NCBI GenBank assembly: GCA_963514005.1
Contig: OY740782.1
Coordinates: 135,842,001 to 135,906,000, forward strand
From: Raja brachyura
Taxonomy: Eukaryota
DNA: 64,000 nt
Direction: 5' to 3'
Below the pieces are notes generated by a model. That model was not told the origin of the DNA. It was given only the letters and a program-made list of their open reading frames with translations, and did no database searches. The translations under genes and the position numbers were made by a program. Within the stretch, counting starts at the first letter, position 1, and every line of letters starts with the position of its first letter. Below are positions 2,938-55,550 of this stretch, one piece after another.

Positions 2938-4082
2938 GTAGTTTCACGTCGCAGAATCGGCCCAACAACTGGGCATTTACTTTCCTTCACACACCCTTAT
3001 TTGGTCTAACTCACGCATCCCCTTGCTTTTCCCTCAAATCCTTGACAATTTCTCATTTTCAAACAGGTAACTACTTTTCAATATGGATGCACTCTATTTC
3101 TACAATGGTTTGCGACAGTAGAATTCAGTGCTCCCACCATTTTTCAGTGGAAAGACATGATTGTGCGATTGACAGTCAATCGCAGTCGGTGAAGATGCGG
3201 GTGAGAGGGACACGAGTGAGTTGTAGACAAGAGCAACACTGTTTCGATGGCCAACCATTTCAGTCCAGGTTTGTTCATTGTTAAAGCTTTTGTTGCGTGC
3301 TATCCAGTCAGCAGAAAGACAATACACGATTACAATCGAGACGCTTACAGCGACATGATAAGGGAATAATGTTTAGTGCAAGGTAAACCCAGCAAAGTCC
3401 GATCAAGGATGATGGTTTTGATAGGGTGTCTACCCAGGAGTGAGATGGAGGAATGAATTGGGTCATTTCACATCTCTTTTTATATTGGAATATAAGTGGT
3501 ATAAACGGGTAAACATCTGGAGTAAACATTGTGGAAAAGTATCCAGTGAGTTAGCAATCCATCTATACATAATTAAAAGTCTGATCTTGTGCTCTTCCTG
3601 TTTGTGAGGGTTATTTGCGAAAGACGGTACACGATGGCGCTATGATATTTCGCCAGGTTACTCATCGTTCTCCTGTGCTGTGAGTTACATTCCGATCGGT
3701 GGTATATTGTAAAAGTTATCGAGGTTTAAAAATCTTGAAAACCGCGCATGCGCAGATTCCTCTCTTCTCCTGTCAGTCAATGCCACGGCTGGGATGGCGA
3801 CGCCACTTCCTGCCCGCCTCAGAGAGGAGTTTGTCCCGCCTCACTCACAAATTCCTCTCTCCCCTCCTCACAGTAACTTGTCTATCGTATATCCCACCAC
3901 CGGTGGCGGCAGCGAGGGGGGGGGGGGGGGGGGTCAGTGAAGGCCCAGTGGAGGCCCTGGTCCCGTCTCTCTCTCCCTCATCACTCACCCCTCTCCCCTG
4001 TCCGCCCTCTGCGGCAATGGCGGCCCAGTCTACCCGCCCCCCCGGATCCGTCTCGTCCGCCGCCGCCGTTGCGGTAACTCAC

Positions 4083-4163
4083 CCTCACGGCCTTCTCGGA
4101 GGAGAACTTCTCCACCAGCTCATCGAAACCCGTGGTGCCCACCGTGACGAGCACCGACTCCAT
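4083..4163 (-). pseudogene. ALG13: Captured first coding exon of ALG13 (UDP-GlcNAc transferase subunit), isolated fragment
   Basis: GAGGG-ATG-G start, 27 codons MESVLVTVGTTGFDELVEKFSSEKAVR, then phase-0 donor AGG|GTGAGT. Resembles the ALG13 N-terminus (human, as recalled: MKCVFVTVGTTSFDDLIACVSAPDSLQ, also 27 aa). No further ALG13 exons seen. Confidence 0.75.
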
Positions 4164-4454
4164 CCCTCCCCCCGCAGCCAGGCGGCGGCAGCGAGCAGGC
4201 AGGCAGGTGGGCTGGGCGGAGAAGGGCCGAGCGGCAGCAGCGGGCAGTCGGACAGGATGGGGACAGGCTGAGCGCGGCTGAGCCGGAGTGGGCAGAGGGA
4301 GTCGGGTTGCAGGGTGGCCAAGTAGTTTGCGAGGAGTTTGAGTAACGCACGCACGCGCGCTCACACACACAATGCAAACTGGTCCAATCGTCAAGTCAAC
4401 AGGATCTAAACTACAGCTACAATGAAAGATCTGTGGAGGAAGGAACTGCTTTTT

Positions 4455-4862
4455 ATGGATGGAGGGAGGAAGGAAGGGAGTGACAGAGGGTAGAGGAAAG
4501 TAGAGGGAGGGAGAGGTAATGGGGGGAGAGGAAGGGATAGGGAGGGAGGGGGTAAGTGTGGGAGGTGAGGAGAGTTGGGGAGGAGGAGGGGGAATTGAGG
4601 GAGAGGAGGGGGAGTGGAGGAGGTTGGGAGTGGGGAGAGCAGTGGGGGATGTCAGGAAGGGTTAGTGAGGAGGATAGGGGGAGGTGAGGAATGAGGGATA
4701 GAGGAATAGGAGGGGGGGTAGGGAGGGGAGTTATTGAGGGAGGGAGGGAGTGACTGAGGGTAGCGAGAAAGGAGAGGGTGGGAGAGGTGAGAGGGATTGG
4801 GGGAGGGGAGGAGGAGATGGGAAAGAAGAGGAGGGGGAGAGAGTGCTGGGGGATGAGGGGAA
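4455..4862 (+). repeat. G/A-rich low-complexity polypurine tract within the Helitron
   Basis: ~400 bp dominated by G and A, with many GGG/GGGG runs. Confidence 0.85.
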
Positions 4863-5771
4863 ATGAGCCCTGCCTGCGCAGTTGGGGGCTATGCGTGAGT
4901 GGTGCAATATTGTGTTGGGGGGACGGGTTGCATTGAGGGCACGGGTGAGTGGTGGAATATTGCATTGGGGGGTTGCGTTGGGAGACAGGTCTCCCGTGTG
5001 ACAGGGACCCAACGGGACCCACTTAGTCGAGTAGGTTAATTAAAAATAACTTATCAGGATCACATCTCCATTTTTGCTATATTACAATGACCTGTAGAGC
5101 GCTTCATTTAGCGTTCCATTTTCCAGGAACATATCTATAGCATGAATCCAGGTATTACTACACTCCCTCAAAATGTTGTCGATTTCAGCCAAGCAAGCTG
5201 TAATTGTCCTACCCAGTCTTTTGGGAGAAGCTTGTTGCAATTGTTTTTTTTCTGAAGTGCTTCCTGATTTTTTTCCCATATGGCCCATCTTGTGGTACAT
5301 CCGAACCAGATTATGCAAGGAAATTGTGGCAGGTTCTGTGTTTTACTCTGCTAATTCAACATTTTTACCCTCATTCTAATGTTGGCACCACCCACAATGA
5401 TATACTGCCACTTTTAAACAGAACAGAGGGAGCTGGAAGAGGGAAGTAGACTTTCATTTTTCCATGTCAATCAGAGATCATATTTGTCATAATCTTCCAT
5501 TATATCAAGTACAACTATTGGATGCAAAAACCAAACTGCTAGAAGAACTAAATAGATCAAGCATATATGGAGGAAAGGAGATGGTCAACCTTTCCGTTTG
5601 AGATCCTGTATCAGTTGTGGCCTTGACCTGAAATGGCTTTGATCCACTGAGTTCTTGTAAATATTTGTTTCTGTTCCGTATTCCAGCATCTGTAGTCTCA
5701 TGTCTCCTGACATCTAGTCATTAAAATCCAAATTACAACAGTAGGAATGACAAGTTTGATGGAACATCCTA

Positions 5772-6065
<294 letters not shown>

Positions 6066-6690: not shown

Positions 6691-9309
6691 GCAAGAAACA
6701 TAGTGGCTGAATTGTCTTTTCTTGGGCTGGATAGCTCGATATACATCTAGTCAAGGAAGAAAGTGAATCACACAATTAGCCAAATGAAAGAGTATTCAAT
6801 GGTGCACAATCTCAGCACAATGGATTTGTCTGGAACACATATTTAACTGTCTAGAATAGGACTGCTCAGTAATTAGCAGTGTTGTTAATGGTCATATGAG
6901 GAATAGAACTTTAAATAATGTCCCTTCACATGATCTCTCTCTGTAATAAAACTTCCTTCCTCCCGCATGTTGCCAATACTGCTCTGGAGTATCTGACATC
7001 AACAAGTAGCCTGTTTGAGTTGGAATCAATTCCTGCGCCTCTTCCCTTGCTCAATCTCTGTTCCACATCAAGTGTCCAGCACAGATATCTGCCCCTTCAT
7101 TTTCTACAACTGGTCGTGATAACCATTAGATAACTACCTTTCTCATCTCTTCACGTTTGAGGCATGGTTTGAGTTAGTATGTGTGTGCTATTTTCATATT
7201 TCATATTTATTTTAGTTGTTTATCTTTTTAATATTTTATCTTGTATGTATCGTTAGCTTTTATGGGTTTGAATGGTGCACTGACTGGCTGACATTTTTAA
7301 ATTTCGTTGTACATGGTTCATGTTACAATGACAATAAAGAAACTATTCTATTCCATGGGCTTCATGTGATAAAGTGGAAAAGCACTGGTTATAAAAAAAG
7401 TTTGTCCCACAGGCTGTCTCACTGCCTTTTCTTCTCTCAGTCTGTACTGCCCTCCAAACACATACAGATATGTAGGTAAATTGGCTTGGTATAAGTGTAA
7501 ATTGCCTAGTGTGTGTAGGATAGTGTTAATGTGTGGGGATCGTTGGTCGGTGCGAACACAGTGGGCCGAAGGGCCTGTTTCGGTGCTTTATCTCTAAACT
7601 AAGATATGTTGGGGACCTCATGCAAAGAAAACTCTGGAATGATTAGCATTTATTTAGTATCTTTTACAACTCGCCAGTTGTAAAACAGTTTATACCCAAT
7701 AATGTACACATGAAACATAGTCAGCGTTTTAACGTGAGGAAGAAACCAACTAAGTCGTAGCCCTTCTCCTAGCTAACAATGGTCTATTCCACATTTTCCG
7801 TGAACTACATCCACTTTGATGTCTCATTTTCATCTTGCACTTCCTTATCTCGGTATCACCCTCTCCCCTGACTCTCAGACTGAAGAAAGGTCTTGACCCA
7901 AAATATCACCCCTTCCTTCTCTCCAGAGATGCTGCCAGTTCCACTGAATGACTCCAGCATTTTGTGTCTATTTCCAACTCAGTCGTAGACCACATTTGGG
8001 GCAACATCACTTTCAGCATTGGGGTGGCATGGTGGTACAGCAGAAGAGTTACTACCTTACAGCGCCAGAGACCTGGGTTCGATCCTGACAACGGGTGCTT
8101 GCATATACATAGTTTGTACGTTCTCCCCGTGACCGAGTGGGTTTTCTCCGAGATCCGAGGTCGGCTTGTACTCGCTAGATCGGCCTGCACTCGCTAGAAT
8201 TTAGAAGATTGAGGTGGCATCTTATAGGAACTTACAAAATTCTTAAGGGGTTGGACAGGCTAGATGCAGGAAGATTGTTCCCGATATTGGGGAAGTCCAG
8301 AACACGGGGTCACAGTTTGATGATAAGAGGGAAATCTTTTAAGACCGAGATGAGAAAAACATTTTTCACACAGAGAGTGGTGAGTCTCTGCAATTTCATT
8401 TCGGAGTCACGTGAGTGACTTCGTGAAGAGCCCGCCGGCGCGCATGCTCGACATATCGTCGTACCGCGTTGCTGCGACGGCTGGCGGTGGAGCGCGCTCC
8501 TCGCCAGCCCTTCAGAAGGGGCCACGGAGGTAAGGATTCTACCTTTAGTTGGTGGTCCTTGTTGTTGGTTTTGTCTTGCAGCAAGGACATGGATGGGAGT
8601 TCCAAGGGCCGGAGGACGTCAGGACGAGTTCGCCGGTCAACAGTTCCGGGGCCTTTACCATCGGCAGTACCTGCATCGCAGGCCGGGACTCAGGCGGAGA
8701 TGTGGGTAAGCCCTGTGTTTACAGGTCCAGATCCGCCAGCACACCACAGCTCGGAGGAGTTCGACGAGGAGGAGTGTGGTGTGCCGCCAGAGCAGGGGGA
8801 CCCTGCCATGGCAGTCAGGTCGTCAGCGGGCTCGCTGGCGACCTCGAGCTGGGTGCGTGCGGCTGCACGGCCTGTTCCACTCCGAGAAGGGGAAGGGCAG
8901 GAGCCCAGAAGCCTAACCCTACCAGGGCTAAGGCATTGCCTGACACGGAGGAGCGGTCAGGTTCCAGGGAAAGACCCGGGGCGGCTGTGAGGTCCAGCCG
9001 GCACGCCCCGACTCTCGACGCCGGGACGGGTCGGTCGAGTCGGGTCTCGTCACGGTCGCCGAGCCCCCCATGGATGGGTGGGCGAGACCATGCGTCGGCA
9101 ACGTCCACGATGTGGGCAGCCGGCAAGACTGCGCGGGCCCCAGGCAGCCATGCTTCGGCTGGTGCCGACACCTCGCCGCAACTGCCCTTAGTGGCAGCGG
9201 CTTCAGCTCCCGCTAAACGGAGGCGGTTGAACACGCCCGCGCAGGAATCGCGCAGTTCGCCTCGGCGGCTGTTAGCGACAACTACCGGCACCGGCAGGGC
9301 CTCGACGAG

Positions 9310-10158
9310 GTGCGGGCCGATGACAGGAGCCCGGTTTTCTTTTCAGAGCCGGAGGACTCCGACCACCTGAGTGTTCAGGGTGAAGGGCGTATTGACCGTA
9401 TGGACCGGCTGCTGGAGCTCCTGCTTCAACGTCAACAACAGCAGGGCAGCAACAGGCACAGGGCGTCTTCACAAACATCTACTATCAGCCTGGAGCAGCA
9501 GGAAGAAGTCCTCATCCAGGCAATGAGCCGTCACAAGGCTCCATCCAATTGCAACTCCCTCAACGTGCCTGTGGTCAACACGCCGATATGGGGCAACATC
9601 AGTGCGGCTATCCGTCAACAGGAGGTAAAACTGCAGCGGATCCTGAAGCTCCTCACGGCCGGTATTACCGCCTTTGTGCGGTCGGTGGACGGGGACGAAT
9701 TGAATTTGGACCAGGGAGATGCCCTGGCCCTCCTGTGCGCGACCCAGCACGAAATTAACGGGTTTCGCAAAACCAGCATCCGCCCAGCGCTCAATCCAAA
9801 GTTTGCAGGAGTGTGCAAACCACCGCCGCCGCCCCCGCCCCGTCAGCTCTTTGGGAAGGACCTCTCGAAGAGAGTCAAAGAGCTTGACGAGCAAGCCAAA
9901 ACGGTGGGGATCATGCGCCCTCAGAGTGCCCCCACACCGTCAGGCTCAAAGTCTCCATACATTCGATCACGAGGGTCTGCCAGTACCTCGACGAGGACCC
10001 ACCCTCAAGCTCCACAACGACAGCAACATCAGACCCAGCACCAGGGGTCTTTTTTAGGACAGGGTCGGCAGAGACCCTGGTGGGAAACGAAGACGCAGCG
10101 CCCTCAAGCCAACCCAGCACCTCCACGTCCACACACGCGTGTCAAGGACCGCCGGTAA
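9310..10158 (+). CDS. DIRS gag-like ORF1 (C-terminal open part; upstream part from ~8590 probably frameshifted)
   Basis: NCNSLNVPVVNTPIW...ALALLCATQHEINGFRKTSIRPALN...LFGKDLSKRVKEL, a typical DIRS1 gag segment, located immediately before pol. Confidence 0.7.
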   Translation: MRADDRSPVFFSEPEDSDHLSVQGEGRIDRMDRLLELLLQRQQQQGSNRHRASSQTSTISLEQQEEVLIQAMSRHKAPSNCNSLNVPVVNTPIWGNISAAIRQQEVKLQRILKLLTAGITAFVRSVDGDELNLDQGDALALLCATQHEINGFRKTSIRPALNPKFAGVCKPPPPPPPRQLFGKDLSKRVKELDEQAKTVGIMRPQSAPTPSGSKSPYIRSRGSASTSTRTHPQAPQRQQHQTQHQGSFLGQGRQRPWWETKTQRPQANPAPPRPHTRVKDRR

Positions 10159-10199
10159 CCACGGAGGTGAGGGGGTCTGGTTCTCTCTTTTCTCTCTGT

Positions 10200-12086
10200 T
10201 TAACTTCACATGTTGGTGGTCACCTTCGGTGGTTTTTTGGGTGCATGAGGTAATTTCACTGGTGACGAGTATGTGTTGCAGAATATTCAGGGGCATAAAA
10301 TTGAGTTTATTAATGGCGACATTCCTCCATCCCAGCACATGCCCGCTCGAACATTTAAAATTATCTGCTGCAGAACAGGCAGCCGGCTATAAGGAATTGT
10401 TAAGTCTTGAGCAAAGGAGTGATTAAGAGAGTGGTGCATGAGCCAGTTGAATTTGTTTCGAACATATTCACCAGACCTAAGAAGGATGGAAGTTGTCGTG
10501 TCATTATTGATCTAACCCGTTTGAATACTTTTGTAACATATTCTCATTTTAAAATGGATACGATGAAACAACCAAATCATTGATTTCTCATGGTTGTTTT
10601 ATGGCATGCATCGGTTTAAAAGACGCATATTATTCCGTATCCGTCCAGAAATGTGACAGAAGGTTTTAAAAATTCATCTGGATGGGGCAACTCTGGCAGT
10701 ACAAGGCTTTGCCTAATGAGCTCACCACAGCCCTAGATTGTTCACTAAATTAGTGAAGCCAATTATGGCTTATTTGAGACAACGACACCATATAGTATGG
10801 CCTATTTAGATGATGTCTTAATTGTGGGCCACACCCTGGAATTGGCTGAACAGGGTGTTGCAGCTGCTGTCAATATATTTCAACAATTGGGGTTTATTGT
10901 CCATCCAGAGAAATCAAAGTTCTACCCTGCCCAGGTGATTAATTACCTAGGGTTCACGGTGAACTCTATAAGCATGAGGGTTACCATTCCAATTAACAAG
11001 ATTGAGGAGGTTACCCAGGTGTGTCAAGATTTAATCCGCACCAATATACCATCGATTCGGCACTTAGCTACAATAATTGGGAAGCTGGTAGCTTTGTTTT
11101 CGGCAGCGCGATATGGACCTTTGCATTATCAGAATTTGCAAAGAGCTAAAATTGCTGCGTTAAAACAGAACGCTGGTTATTATGATCGGTCCATGCAGCT
11201 GCCGCCCGAAGCGATAAATGAGTTGCAATGGTGGGTGTGTCACATTAGCAACTCATTCAAGCCTATTAGGGAGGCTAATCCGGTGGTATATTTGCAAACT
11301 GATGCAAGCTCCAATGGTTGGGGATCCACGAATAATTGCTCTAGTTGTGGTGGCAGATGGGACACCCTTGAATCAACGATGTTGTTAACTCAAGGGATTA
11401 ACTATTTGGAGTTGCTGGCAGCATTCCACGGACTTCGTGCGTATTGTTCTAAGCTTGTTGGAGCACATGTCCGTCTCCAAATAGACAACACCACAGCAGT
11501 AGCATATTTAAACCATATGGGTGGTACCAGGCCTGTTTCGTGTGACAAATTGGCAAACTCAATTTGGCTCTGGTGTGTTCAAAGAGACATTTGGATTTCA
11601 GCTACCTATTTGCCAGGTGAGCTTAATACTGTGGCGGACACCAGGTCACGCAAATTTAATGACAACATTGAATGGATGTTGCATCCTGAGATCTTTTCTA
11701 AAGTCACAGCCAAATTTGGTAAACCGGACATTGACCTCTTTGCGTCACGGTGGAACCATCAGGTACCAACCTACGTTTCATGGGAACCAGATCCTGGGGC
11801 AATAGCGCTAGATGCATTCTCGCTGGACTGGGGGAAGTGGTTTTTCTATGCCTTCCCCCCATTTTGCCTCATCAGTCGGGTATTGGGAAAGATTCAGGCA
11901 GATGCTGCCAAGGGCATCCTTATTATACCCGACTGGCCCACACAGCCTTGGTATCCGGTGGTCTTTGACATGCTCAACGAACCTTGGGTCCTTTTGAAGG
12001 GTTGCCCACAATTGGTTACTCACCCTGTCTCAGGGGAGCCGCATCCCTGCCATGGCTATTTAAATTTGTTGGCTTGCAGGTTCTGA
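10200..12086 (+). pseudogene. DIRS pol: reverse transcriptase, RNase H and methyltransferase-like domain (5' part broken; open 10797-12086)
   Basis: RT: YLDD, INYLGF. RNase H: QTDASSNGWG, INYLELLA, QIDNTTAVAYLNHMGG, PGELNTVADTRSR. MT-like: DIDLFASRWN...DAFSLDW...YAFPPF. Upstream RT motifs (FVSNIFTRPKKDGSCRVIIDL, LKDAYYSV) are interrupted by stops and frameshifts. Confidence 0.92.
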
Positions 12087-13063
12087 ACAGGCCGTTAGTC
12101 CAATACGGCCTCTCGGCTCGGACCATGGATACCACCGGGGCGTCGTGTCGAGAGTCTACAAGGCGAAGATACCGCTCGCATATTAAGAAGTGGGAAGCCT
12201 ACTGCAGCCGCTCTCGCATCACGTACGATGACGTGACAACAACCGACGTCCTGGAATTCCTCGCGGGGTTGCACCATGATGAACACTTAAGTTACAGTGC
12301 CATCAACAGCGCCAGAAGTGCGCTATCATTCTAGCTCAGTTTGGAGGTAGGATCCAACAGGCTAGTGTCCAGACTCATGCGGGGTATATTCAATATGAAT
12401 CCGCCTACACCACGCTATAATATCACCTGGGATGTCAGGGACGTATTAACCCTGCTCAGGACGTGGTCACCCATGGAAGGGCTCCAACTGGACCAACGCA
12501 CCATGAAGCTGGTGATGTTACTAGCGCTGACTTCAGCTCAGAGGGTACAGACACTACACAAACTTCGTGTCGACAGAATGACGTCTACCCCCACAGAAGT
12601 AGTCTTTTTCATTGACGAGCTACTAAAGCAGCATAGACCTGGGTGCACAGGGCTGCAGCTGAAGTTCCCGGCATACCCCGCAGATGCTAGGCTATGTGTA
12701 GCCTCACATATCCGCCACTATGTCAAGGTGACGGCACGCATCAGAGGAATGGAGCGATACCTGCTTGTCACTCATAAGAGACCTCATCATCGAGTGACAG
12801 TCCAGACGCTATCCATGTGGCTTCCAGTCGTTTTGGGTAAGTCAGGTATCGACACTAATGTGTTCAAGTCTCTTTCCAACAGGGCTGCATCGACGTCAAC
12901 GGCGAGGGTCATGGAGGTGCCCATGGACAAAATTCTCGCCACAGCAGGATGGGCTAATGAAGCTGTGTTCCAGCGTTTTTATAACAAGCCTGTTGCTGCT
13001 CCTCTACGGTTTACAGAAGCCGTGCTGAATGCAGGTCACGAACGTGGAGATGTCCCCGCATGA
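11984..13063 (+). pseudogene. DIRS tyrosine recombinase (in-frame stop at 12332-12334)
   Basis: LSYSAINSARSALS, RLMRGIFNMNPPTPRY..TWDV, LALTSAQRVQTL (catalytic R), KSLSNRAAST (degenerate HSTR), AGW, FQRFY (catalytic Y). Confidence 0.9.
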
Positions 13064-28890: not shown

Positions 28891-31638
28891 CATAGAAACA
28901 TAGAAAATAGGTGCAGGAGTAGGCCATTCGGCCCTTCGAGCCTGCACCGCCATTCAATGTGCTCATGGCTGATCATGCGTATCCCGTACCTGCCTTCTCT
29001 CCATACCCCCTGATCCCTTTAGCCACAAGTGCCACATCTAACGCCCTCTTAAATATAGCCAATGAACTGGCCTCAACTACCTTCTGTGGCAGAGAATTCC
29101 AGAGACTCACCACTCTCTGTGTAAAGAATGTTTTCCTCATTTCGGTCCTAAAGGAATTCCCCCTTATCCTTAGACTGTGACCCCTTGTTCTGGACTCCCC
29201 CAACATCGGGAACAATCTTCCAGCATCTAGCTTGTCCAACCCCTTAAGAATTTTGTAAGTTTCTATAAGATCCCCCCTCAATCTTCTAAATTCCAGCGAG
29301 TACAAGCCGAGTCTATCCAATCTTTCCTCATATGAAAGTCCTGACATCCCAGGAATCAGTCTGGTGAATCTTCTCTGTACCCCCTCTATGGCAAGGATGT
29401 CTTTCCTCAGATTTGGAGACCAAAACTGTACGCAATACACCAGGTGTGGCCTCACCAAAACCCTGTACAACTGCAGTAGAACCTCCCTGCTCCTATACTC
29501 AAATCCTTTCGCTATGAATGCTAGCATACCATTTGCTTTCTTCACTGCCTGCTGCACCTGCATGCCTACTTTCAATGACTGGTGTACCATGACACCCAGG
29601 TCTCGTTGCATCTCCCCCTTTCCTAATCTGCCACCATTCAGATAATAGTCTACCCTCATGTTTTTGCCACCAAAGTGGATAACCTCACATTTATCCACAT
29701 TATACTGCATCTGCCATGCATCTGCCCATTCACTCAGCCTATCCAAATCACCCTGCTGCCTCCAAGCATCCTCCTCACACCTAACTATACCCCCCAGCTT
29801 GGTATCATCTGCAAATTTGGAGATGTTGCATTGAATTCCCTCGTCCAAATCATTAATATATATTGTAAATAGCTGGGGTCCCAGCACTGAGCCTTGCGGC
29901 ACCCCACTAGTCACTGCCTGCCATTCTGAAAAGGACCCGTTTACTCCTACCCTTTGCCTCCTGTCTGCTAGCCAGTTCTCTATCCACATCAATACTGAAC
30001 CCCCAATACCGTGTGCTTTAAGTTTGTATGCTAATCTCTTATGCGGGACCTTGTCGAAAGCCTTCTGAAAGTCTAGATATAACACATCCACTGGTTCTCC
30101 CTTATCCACTCTACTAGTTACATCCTCGAAAAATTCTATCAGATTTGTCAGACATGATTTACCTTTCGTAAATCCATGCTGACTTTGTCCAATGATTTCA
30201 CCACTTTCCAAATGCGCTGCTATCCCATCTTTAATAACTGACTCTAGCAGTTTCCCCACTACCGATGTTAGACTAACTGGTCTGTAATTCCCCGCTTTCT
30301 CTCTCCCTCCTTTTTTAAAAAGTGGGGTTACATTAGCTACCCTCCAATCCTCAGGAACTACTCCAGAATCCAAGGAATTTTGAAAAATTATCACTAATGC
30401 ATCCACTATTTCTGTGGCTACCTCCTTGAGTACTCTGGGATGCAGACTATCTGGCCCTGGGGATTTATCGGCCTTCAATCCGTTCAATTTACCCAACACC
30501 ACCTCCCGGCTAACCTGGATTTCACTCAGTTCCTCCATCTTATTTGACCCCCGTTCCACTGCTATTTCCGGCAGATTATTTATGTGTTCCTTAGTGAAGA
30601 CAGAACCAAAGTAGTTATTCAATTGGTCTGCCATGTCCTTGTTCCCCATGATCAATTCATCTGTTTCTGACTGCAAGGGACCAACATTTGTTTTAACTAG
30701 TCTCTTTCTCTTCACATATCTATAAAAACTTTTGCAGTCAGTTTTTATGTTCCCTGCCAGTTTCCTTTCATAATCTATTTTCCCTTTCCTAATTAAGCCC
30801 TTTGTCCTCCTCTGCTGGATTCTGAATTTCCCCCAGTCCTCCGGTAGGCTGCTTTTTCTCGCAAATTTGTATGCCTCATCTTTTGTTTTTATACTATCCC
30901 TGATTTCCCTTGTTATCCATGGATGCACCACCTTCCCCGATTTATTCTTTTGCCAAACTGGTATGAACAACTTTTGTACTTCATCCATGCAGTCTTTAAA
31001 TACCTTCCATTGCACATCCACTGTCAACCCTTTAAGAATCACCTGCCAGTCTATCGTGGCCAATTCACATCTCATACCTTCAAAGTTACCTTTGTTCAAG
31101 TTCAGAACCCTTGTTTCTGACTTAATTTTGTCACTCTCCATCATAATGAAGAACTCAACCATATTATGGTCACTCTTGCCCAAGGGGCCACGCACAACAA
31201 GACTGCTAACTAACCCTTCCTCATTACTCAATACCCAGTCTAGAATAGCCTGCTCTCTCGTTGGTTCCTCCACATGTTGGTTGAGAAAACTATCCCGCAT
31301 ACATTCCAGGAAATCCTCTTCCTCAGCACCCCTGCCAATTTGATTCACCCAATCTACATGCAGATTGAAGTCACCCATTATAACCGTGTTACCCTTGTTG
31401 CACGCATTTCTAATTTCCTGTTTGATGCCATCCCCAACTCCAATACTACTGTTAGGTGGCCTGTACACCGCTCCCACTAGCGTTTTCTGCCCCTTAGAGT
31501 TTCGCAGCTCTACCCATATCGATTCCACTTCCTCCACGCTAATGTCCTTCCTTTCTATTGCATTAATCTCCTCTCTCACCAGCAACGCTATCCCACCTCC
31601 TTTTCATTTTCATCTATCCCTCCTGAATATTGAATATC
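28891..31638 (-). mobile_element. Young CR1-clade LINE, 5'-truncated within the endonuclease domain
   Basis: CATAGAAACATAGAAAATAGG tail, 3' UTR GGGCCGAATGGCCT motif, uninterrupted ORF2. Confidence 0.93.
28973..31585 (-). CDS. CR1 ORF2: APE endonuclease (partial) + reverse transcriptase, 870 aa open
   Basis: EN: VYRPP, MGDFN, ILDWVLSN, SDHNMV. RT: KSPGPD, NYRPVSLTS, YLDFQKAFDKV, GVPQGSVLGP, FADDTK. C-terminus RRLRGDLIETYK. Confidence 0.95.
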   Translation of the reverse strand: MLVREEINAIERKDISVEEVESIWVELRNSKGQKTLVGAVYRPPNSSIGVGDGIKQEIRNACNKGNTVIMGDFNLHVDWVNQIGRGAEEEDFLECMRDSFLNQHVEEPTREQAILDWVLSNEEGLVSSLVVRGPLGKSDHNMVEFFIMMESDKIKSETRVLNLNKGNFEGMRCELATIDWQVILKGLTVDVQWKVFKDCMDEVQKLFIPVWQKNKSGKVVHPWITREIRDSIKTKDEAYKFARKSSLPEDWGKFRIQQRRTKGLIRKGKIDYERKLAGNIKTDCKSFYRYVKRKRLVKTNVGPLQSETDELIMGNKDMADQLNNYFGSVFTKEHINNLPEIAVERGSNKMEELSEIQVSREVVLGKLNGLKADKSPGPDSLHPRVLKEVATEIVDALVIIFQNSLDSGVVPEDWRVANVTPLFKKGGREKAGNYRPVSLTSVVGKLLESVIKDGIAAHLESGEIIGQSQHGFTKGKSCLTNLIEFFEDVTSRVDKGEPVDVLYLDFQKAFDKVPHKRLAYKLKAHGIGGSVLMWIENWLADRRQRVGVNGSFSEWQAVTSGVPQGSVLGPQLFTIYINDLDEGIQCNISKFADDTKLGGIVRCEEDAWRQQGDLDRLSEWADAWQMQYNVDKCEVIHFGGKNMRVDYYLNGGRLGKGEMQRDLGVMVHQSLKVGMQVQQAVKKANGMLAFIAKGFEYRSREVLLQLYRVLVRPHLVYCVQFWSPNLRKDILAIEGVQRRFTRLIPGMSGLSYEERLDRLGLYSLEFRRLRGDLIETYKILKGLDKLDAGRLFPMLGESRTRGHSLRIRGNSFRTEMRKTFFTQRVVSLWNSLPQKVVEASSLAIFKRALDVALVAKGIRGYGEKAGTGYA

Positions 31639-37677: not shown

Positions 37678-37878
<201 letters not shown>

Positions 37879-54677: not shown

Positions 54678-55550
54678 TCTATATATAATTGAAAGTCTCA
54701 TCTTGACCACTTTCTGTTAGCACTGCATATTGATTTTAGAAAAAGCGTTACCACTTATGGCTGTGATTTTTGGCCATCTTACTCAGAGTCCCCCTCCGCT
54801 GCGCAGGACAAGAGGGTTTTTACCATCGATAAAAATAAAAGTTATTAGTGTTTAAAAAAGATTCTCTCTCCTGTCAATCACCGCCATGAAGGCCATGCCC
54901 CTTCCGGTAGGGTGGGGGGGGAGGGACTATAAAACCCGGAGTGTGGGCATGGCTCAGTCTCTGCAAGATGGGGGAGGGAGAGGTCAGCTTGGTGGCCTTG
55001 CACCCTGCTTGAAATGGTAGGAAACTGCTTTTGAATTTGGTGGCCTTGCACCCTGCTTGAAATGGTAGGACACTGCAGTTGAATTTGGTGGCCTTGCACC
55101 CTGCTTGAAACGGTATGAAACTGTTTTTGAATTTGGTGGCCTTGCATGCTACTTGAAATGGTAAGAAACTGCATTTGAATTTGGTGGCCTTGTACCCTGC
55201 TTGAAATGGTAGGAATCTTCATTTGAGTTTGGTAGCCTGCACTCTGTTTGAAATGGAATTTCAAGGAATAGCCGTGAGTCAACTGCCAGCCCACCTGCCA
55301 TGAGTGAGTGAGCTGCCAGCACACCAGGCTTGAGTGACTGAGCTGCCAGCCCAAGAATCCATTTGGCCCACAATGTCCATACTAGCCCTCTGGAAACCAG
55401 TCCCTTCAGCCCACAACACCCACACTAGTGCTCCAGAAAGCCCCCCCCCATTGGCCACCAATATTGGAATTGGTGGAAAGGTGTAATATTGAGTTGGGCG
55501 ACCAGCCCTCCCGTGTGAACATGGGACCCAACGGGTCCCACTTAGTCTAG
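54678..55550 (+). mobile_element. Non-autonomous Helitron
   Basis: A|TCTATATATAATTGAAAGTCT ... TGGGACCC-AAC-GGGTCCCA hairpin (55522-55540), CTTAGTCTAG|T; no TSD. Confidence 0.88.
54989..55258. repeat. 48-bp minisatellite (~5.5 copies) inside the Helitron
   Basis: Unit TTGGTGGCCTTGCACCCTGCTTGAAATGGTAGGAAACTGCTTTTGAAT; seen as a 16-aa repeat in the ORF track. Confidence 0.9.

Follow-up and report, generated by a model that had tools for sequence, protein, structure and literature searches.

A probable Helitron-borne cassette carrying the 5' end of ALG13 at hundreds of sites in a skate genome

The window analysed here, a stretch of 64,000 nucleotides from contig OY740782.1 of Raja brachyura, holds within an intron of CTNND2 a short open exon that reads like the start of ALG13 and is followed directly by a consensus splice donor, which raises the question of how this exon came to lie there and whether it serves the gene around it. 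An earlier note on this DNA had proposed that a Helitron captured ALG13 exon 1 and sits inside the intron in the orientation of CTNND2. Our reading, to which we assign a probability of about 0.88, is that the element belongs, as one copy among many, to a non-autonomous Helitron family bearing the host ALG13 5' end at hundreds of sites, which likely stems from a single capture at the DNA level with an old burst of copying after it, and whose copies are likely neutral passengers.

The element and its host intron

Table 1. Features of the window (positions in the window)
Feature	Position	Strand	Remarks
Putative non-autonomous Helitron, 1,470 bp	3562..5031	+	Sits between host A and T
Helitron 5' end, begins TC, right border approximate	3562..3890	+	68% over 190 columns to L082 5' end; common to 54678-55550
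Captured start of ALG13 intron 1	3959..4082	-	Donor GTGAGT at 4082-4077; parent splices at equivalent position
Captured ALG13 exon 1 coding part, 27 codons, open, phase 0	4083..4163	-	Parent homology; annotated skate ALG13
Captured ALG13 5' UTR and upstream region, GC-rich	4164..4446	-	GC box 4221-4214; promoter role suggested by position
G/A-rich low-complexity tract, borders approximate	4460..4860	+	Also in other family copies
Helitron 3' end, hairpin 5004-5020 with one broken pair, then CGAG	4973..5031	+	81-82% to 3' ends of RepHel loci L070, L074/L075
CTNND2 armadillo exon, 214 nt, ends in phase 1	5852..6065	-	100% identical to catenin delta-2 of skate and shark
Preceding CTNND2 exon, armadillo repeat	37702..37834	-	Armadillo exon
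Second putative non-autonomous Helitron, related ends, without ALG13 piece	54678..55550	+	Both ends in common with 3562-5031

The host gene is CTNND2, as the earlier note had it, and the element lies 820 bp into the 46.8-kb intron that follows the exon at 6065-5852; the exon that comes next also opens in phase 1, and the captured ALG13 piece is sense to CTNND2, both being on the minus strand. The 3' junction of the element is crossed by contigs of organisms B, C and E with at least 31 letters on each side and by a contig of organism D with 28, the organism B contig also spans the 5' junction, and the flank differs by ~4% in organisms D and E. Since the contigs of B, C and E cross the Helitron 3' junction at the CTNND2 site, the insertion is common to these three other organisms and older than the splits from them. 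Elsewhere in the window, open frames at 9217-13063 on the plus strand resemble what we take by eye to be a DIRS-type retrotransposon, with an RT/RNase H frame at 10749-12086 and a recombinase-like frame at 12335-13063, and a long unbroken open frame of 876 aa at 28973-31603 on the minus strand was labelled by eye as a LINE-type element.

The element starts with TC at 3562 behind a host A at 3561 and ends with CGAG at 5028-5031 in front of a T, and no target duplication is visible in its flanks. Its hairpin has arms at 5004-5010 and 5014-5020 with one pair broken; the form typical of the family is CTAG with a 7-bp stem, from which the window copy deviates in having CGAG and the broken pair. The second Helitron, at 54678-55550, displays a perfect hairpin stem and CTAG followed by T, and the match between the termini of the two elements that had been claimed from the letters is real: both ends are alike, with 85% identity over the last 62 columns, and the middles differ. 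Tandem units of ~45 bp are found inside this second element, at 54990-55250. The parts of the window element follow one another in the order 5' end, intron, exon, promoter and 3' end, and the captured ALG13 DNA runs antisense to the element that carries it.

A search with PF14214 gave 96 matches in the same genome, and among the ten of these loci that were fetched, L082/L083 carry the two ends, pointing the same way, and between them PF14214, an HUH-like motif (identified by eye) and pieces of a PIF1 helicase, and L070, L074 and L084 have the 3' end in common with the window element. Because L082/L083 are interrupted by stops and frameshifts and are only 68% alike at the 5' end, they would represent a relative of the mobiliser and not necessarily the mobiliser itself. 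The family thus displays a TC start, a CTRR-type 3' end with an upstream hairpin, insertion between A and T and a RepHel element with related ends, and on these features 3562-5031 appears to be a non-autonomous Helitron with ends that match those of RepHel-coding elements in this genome. A paralogous empty site was suggested by one of 16 flank joins, a weak match at 68% identity, and no orthologous empty site was present among the 15 joints listed. Near-identical RepHel matches lie ~120-160 kb apart at C47:4.0-4.4 Mb, and four matches to the ALG13 cassette lie ~105 kb apart at C5:78.89-79.21 Mb; both arrangements suggest large tandem duplications.

The parental ALG13 gene and the captured piece

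The ATG at 4163 on the minus strand opens 27 codons (MESVLVTVGTTGFDELVEKFSSEKAVR) and the GTGAGT donor follows directly, so that the GC box, the 27-codon exon and the donor described in the earlier note are all present, and neither a TATA match nor an upstream ATG was found in the upstream block 4164..4446. The profile check that the note had called for gave a divided answer: on its own, the 27-aa peptide reaches 15 bits (E 0.025) against PF04101, below the Pfam cut-off of 22, whereas 21 of its 27 residues are identical to exon 1 of the genome's own ALG13 and 22 of 27, compared by eye, match the N-terminus of an annotated skate ALG13.

That ALG13 gene lies on another contig, C13, with exon 1 at 8803051-8803131, exon 2 from 8808926 and exon 3 near 8811493. 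Among the annotated proteins of cartilaginous fish, exon 2 matches those of ALG13, the best at 93% to a skate, and exon 3 matches solved ALG13 structures. Searching the genome with the PF04101 profile gave 19 matches, of which two were translated, one being the ALG13-type exon on C13 and the other a different glycosyltransferase; exon 2 has a single match genome-wide, at the parent locus. Window positions 3959-4446 align to C13 8803236-8802732 at 71-78% identity, and the captured ~490 bp therefore comprise ~280 bp upstream of the ATG, the 81-nt exon, the donor and ~120 bp of intron 1. The homology with the parent stops upstream at the edge of a common repeat, which indicates that the entire unique stretch before the ATG was captured. 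In the parent, the upstream region (L036 890-1030) holds three copies of a 45-bp GC-box unit, of which the family copies hold about two, and intron 1 (L036 1290-2000) opens with a long GC-rich minisatellite just beyond the capture border.

The position of the parental donor is confirmed by a contig of run X19, in which the exon up to place 4083 continues straight into 30 letters that are the first ones of parental exon 2. This parental ALG13 junction is the only one at 4083 among those listed in two contig sets, guessed to be RNA, from one study; the two runs are without coverage of the CTNND2 exon, and the unspliced pieces of other copies that they contain may be DNA or read-through.

Within 100 kb around the parental gene the Helitron ends gave no match, only short low-complexity hits. 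With a parent that is without Helitron ends and an exon 2 that is single-copy, we conclude that the 5' end of ALG13 was taken at the DNA level from the single true ALG13 gene, as the note had proposed from the retained donor. The observations that bear on that proposal agree: the peptide is that of ALG13 exon 1, exon 2 is found only at the parent and related organisms carry the Helitron end at the CTNND2 site. At position 2, the Helitron family and the ALG13 of another skate have Glu, whereas the genome's own parental gene has Ala; since the family keeps the Glu2 of the other skate, the capture is likely older than the change from Glu2 to Ala in the parent.

Size and evolution of the family

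The cassette is repeated throughout the genome. A DNA search returned 751 candidates, and all 40 that were scored match, those other than the window copy itself at 75-83%; exact matches genome-wide numbered 190 for an exon pattern and 59, the parent included, for an upstream pattern, with no match for the reversed controls of either. On contigs C1-C8, to which the capture-recapture calculation was limited because both match lists are complete there, 6 of 36 upstream-pattern matches coincide with exon-pattern ones, which gives ~1,140 copies (interval 580-2,980), a figure that presumes independent decay of the two motifs and is inflated by partial copies. We conclude that there are at least 190 copies, and roughly 1,000 by capture-recapture.

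We sampled 49 loci, 20 from the DNA search (the window copy included) and 29 of 30 from the exon pattern, one duplicate having been removed. In all 49, family sequence flanks the captured block on one side or both (5' side in 43, 3' side in 40), so that the other Helitron-embedded copies expected by the earlier note, besides a multi-exon parent, do exist; the same element lies on both sides of the block and the outer flanks differ among copies. The 5' motif was found in 39 of the 49 loci, in some loosely, and the 3' motif in 26, the others being truncated or having it outside the fetched flank. At scorable ends, the host base before TC is A in 13 of 19 well-matched 5' ends, and a T follows the 3' end in 21 of 25. 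In L091, L112 and L094 a CTAG end is joined directly to a 5' end, and the flanks suggest head-to-tail or nested Helitrons.

The ATG is retained in 33 of the 49 copies, the open frame in 27, the GT donor in 42, and frame and GT donor together in 23; the window copy retains ATG, frame and donor and differs by 4.7% from the family majority at non-CpG sites. Across the copies, outside the pattern used for selection, 229 non-synonymous changes were seen against 224.5 expected and 110 synonymous against 114.5 (N/S ratio ~1.05), and the first 20 loci alone gave 85 against 84.0 and 40 against 41.0. As these counts are near expectation, the captured exon evolves neutrally, and no selection on the 27-aa peptide was detected across the sampled copies; such neutral coding change carries no information on promoter use. 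A tree of the copies (37 rows, 13 of 50 having been left out for high divergence, probably through truncation) is star-like, with long tips and 3 of 34 inner branches well supported. This is the shape expected for a single old burst and all copies have the same borders; more than one capture may also be compatible with the tree.

Taken together, the anatomy of a promoter capture is present, a large number of copies carrying an upstream region together with exon 1 and its donor. Of the mobile promoter and first-exon cassette that the earlier note had envisaged genome-wide, the amplification is borne out; a working promoter or first exon would be a further step, and the coding part is neutral.

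Alternative readings, mechanism and known systems

Could the exon belong to a genuine ALG13 gene or paralogue nested in the CTNND2 intron? The open frame, the good start context and the consensus donor would suit one, but exon 2 occurs nowhere outside C13, the exon-3 match to PF04101 is confined to C13, the one other translated match being a different glycosyltransferase, and hundreds of similar copies are changing neutrally; we give this reading almost no credence, and single-copy exon 2 rules it out. Retrocopies are generally frequent in vertebrates, and this general frequency is what speaks for the copies being processed pseudogenes or segmental duplicates of ALG13 into which Helitron ends landed separately. 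Against this very improbable origin, the donor and ~120 bp of intron are kept, exon 2 is single-copy, and the same element lies on both sides of copies with differing outer flanks; the shared ends and retained intron rule it out.

A further reading accepts the Helitron origin and holds that the window copy, or a subset of copies, has been co-opted by host genes, in the present case CTNND2, to act as an alternative promoter, first exon or poison exon. The window copy is co-oriented with the gene and has start, frame and donor intact, its insertion is common to B, C and E, a candidate acceptor at 4416 would define a 334-nt frame-shifting exon, and copies of the bat element HelibatN3 start transcripts (PMC4778049). 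The captured block also has a CpG observed/expected ratio of 0.79, like the parent (0.78) and above the whole window (0.50), and keeps 32 of 43 CpGs, the highest retention of the 49 copies. This retention is, however, the top of a continuum (next 0.72, 0.70 and 0.70) in a ranking where 19 of the 49 loci were chosen for likeness to the window copy, and a part that is not a promoter, the 5' Helitron body, is equally CpG-rich (0.96). Splicing to the next CTNND2 exon is out of frame, as the note had predicted from the phase 1 junction, and reaches a stop after 11 further codons; this predicted stop is placed two bases ahead of an in-frame CTNND2 ATG (counted from two translations). If the window copy fired, its transcript would splice 45 kb downstream to yield a 38-codon frame and would likely be removed by nonsense-mediated decay. 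In the bat study, a transcript start lay inside the insertion in 3 of 46 candidates (PMC4778049). A 40-aa query for chimeras among annotated proteins gave 24 candidates, of which none scored, and as this query also missed the true ALG13 proteins, its outcome carries no information. We consider recruitment unlikely, and most copies are likely without function.

For the reading that we prefer, a capture spread as a non-autonomous Helitron, a RepHel transposase would have copied the element in trans. For the capture itself we lean towards end bypass: a Helitron that lay in ALG13 intron 1, in the orientation opposite to the gene, would have missed its terminator and read through across exon 1 and the promoter to end at another 3' end. 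This fits the order of the parts, as does repair-type filler capture, a somewhat less favoured but serious possibility: end bypass requires family ends near the parent at the time of capture, and the 100 kb around the parent now hold no remnant of these ends.

This mode of capture is already known from bats, and the skate ALG13 case repeats the bat pattern. According to two bat reports (PMC4224331, PMC4778049), HelibatN3 of Myotis carries the promoter and 5' UTR of NUBPL together with its first exon and a part of intron 1, donor included, and exists in about a thousand or more copies; in that bat, Helitrons captured the promoters of 15 genes. Both families are non-autonomous, bear a host-gene promoter, first exon and donor in about a thousand copies, and have 5'-TC and CTRR-3' termini and an A/T target. 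They differ in gene, host and length (NUBPL, a bat and six captured codons against ALG13, a skate-like fish and 27 codons), and promoter activity and exon trapping, the latter in cells, have been demonstrated for the bat element, whereas the skate cassette is known here from its sequence anatomy. HelibatN217.1, which captured TMBIM4 and later gained a second, retrogene piece (PMC4224331), has in this second piece something without a recognised counterpart in the skate element. ALG13 had no hit among the bat captures in four supplementary files of PMC4224331. In Xenopus laevis, PMC12001565 describes Heli1Xen1 as a young element whose 64 insertions carry 19 fragments, none of them in more than 17 copies, with 17 of the 19 coming from the 5' gene end; it resembles the present family as a non-mammalian vertebrate Helitron capturing gene pieces, mostly 5' ends, but it is young with many fragments in few copies, whereas the skate family likely represents one old capture in hundreds of copies. 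We found no report of such a Helitron capture in cartilaginous fish in the freely accessible literature searched.

With the ALG13 family, high-copy Helitron capture of promoters and first exons reaches beyond bats and frogs into cartilaginous fish, and the bias to 5' gene ends gains support from a third group of vertebrates. The family also carries a warning for annotation, since most first exons in skates that look like ALG13 are copies of a repeat. That some of the ~thousand ALG13 promoter-plus-donor cassettes are now fixed alternative first exons in skates, and that the CTNND2 copy drives an intronic transcript which, with an in-frame ATG so close behind the stop of its short ALG13 frame, might give a truncated delta-catenin or adjust the level of this protein, we regard as improbable. 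The family provides a test set in which a single housekeeping promoter stands in varied genomic settings, in dated copies that number hundreds; about half of those in our sample keep start, frame and donor.
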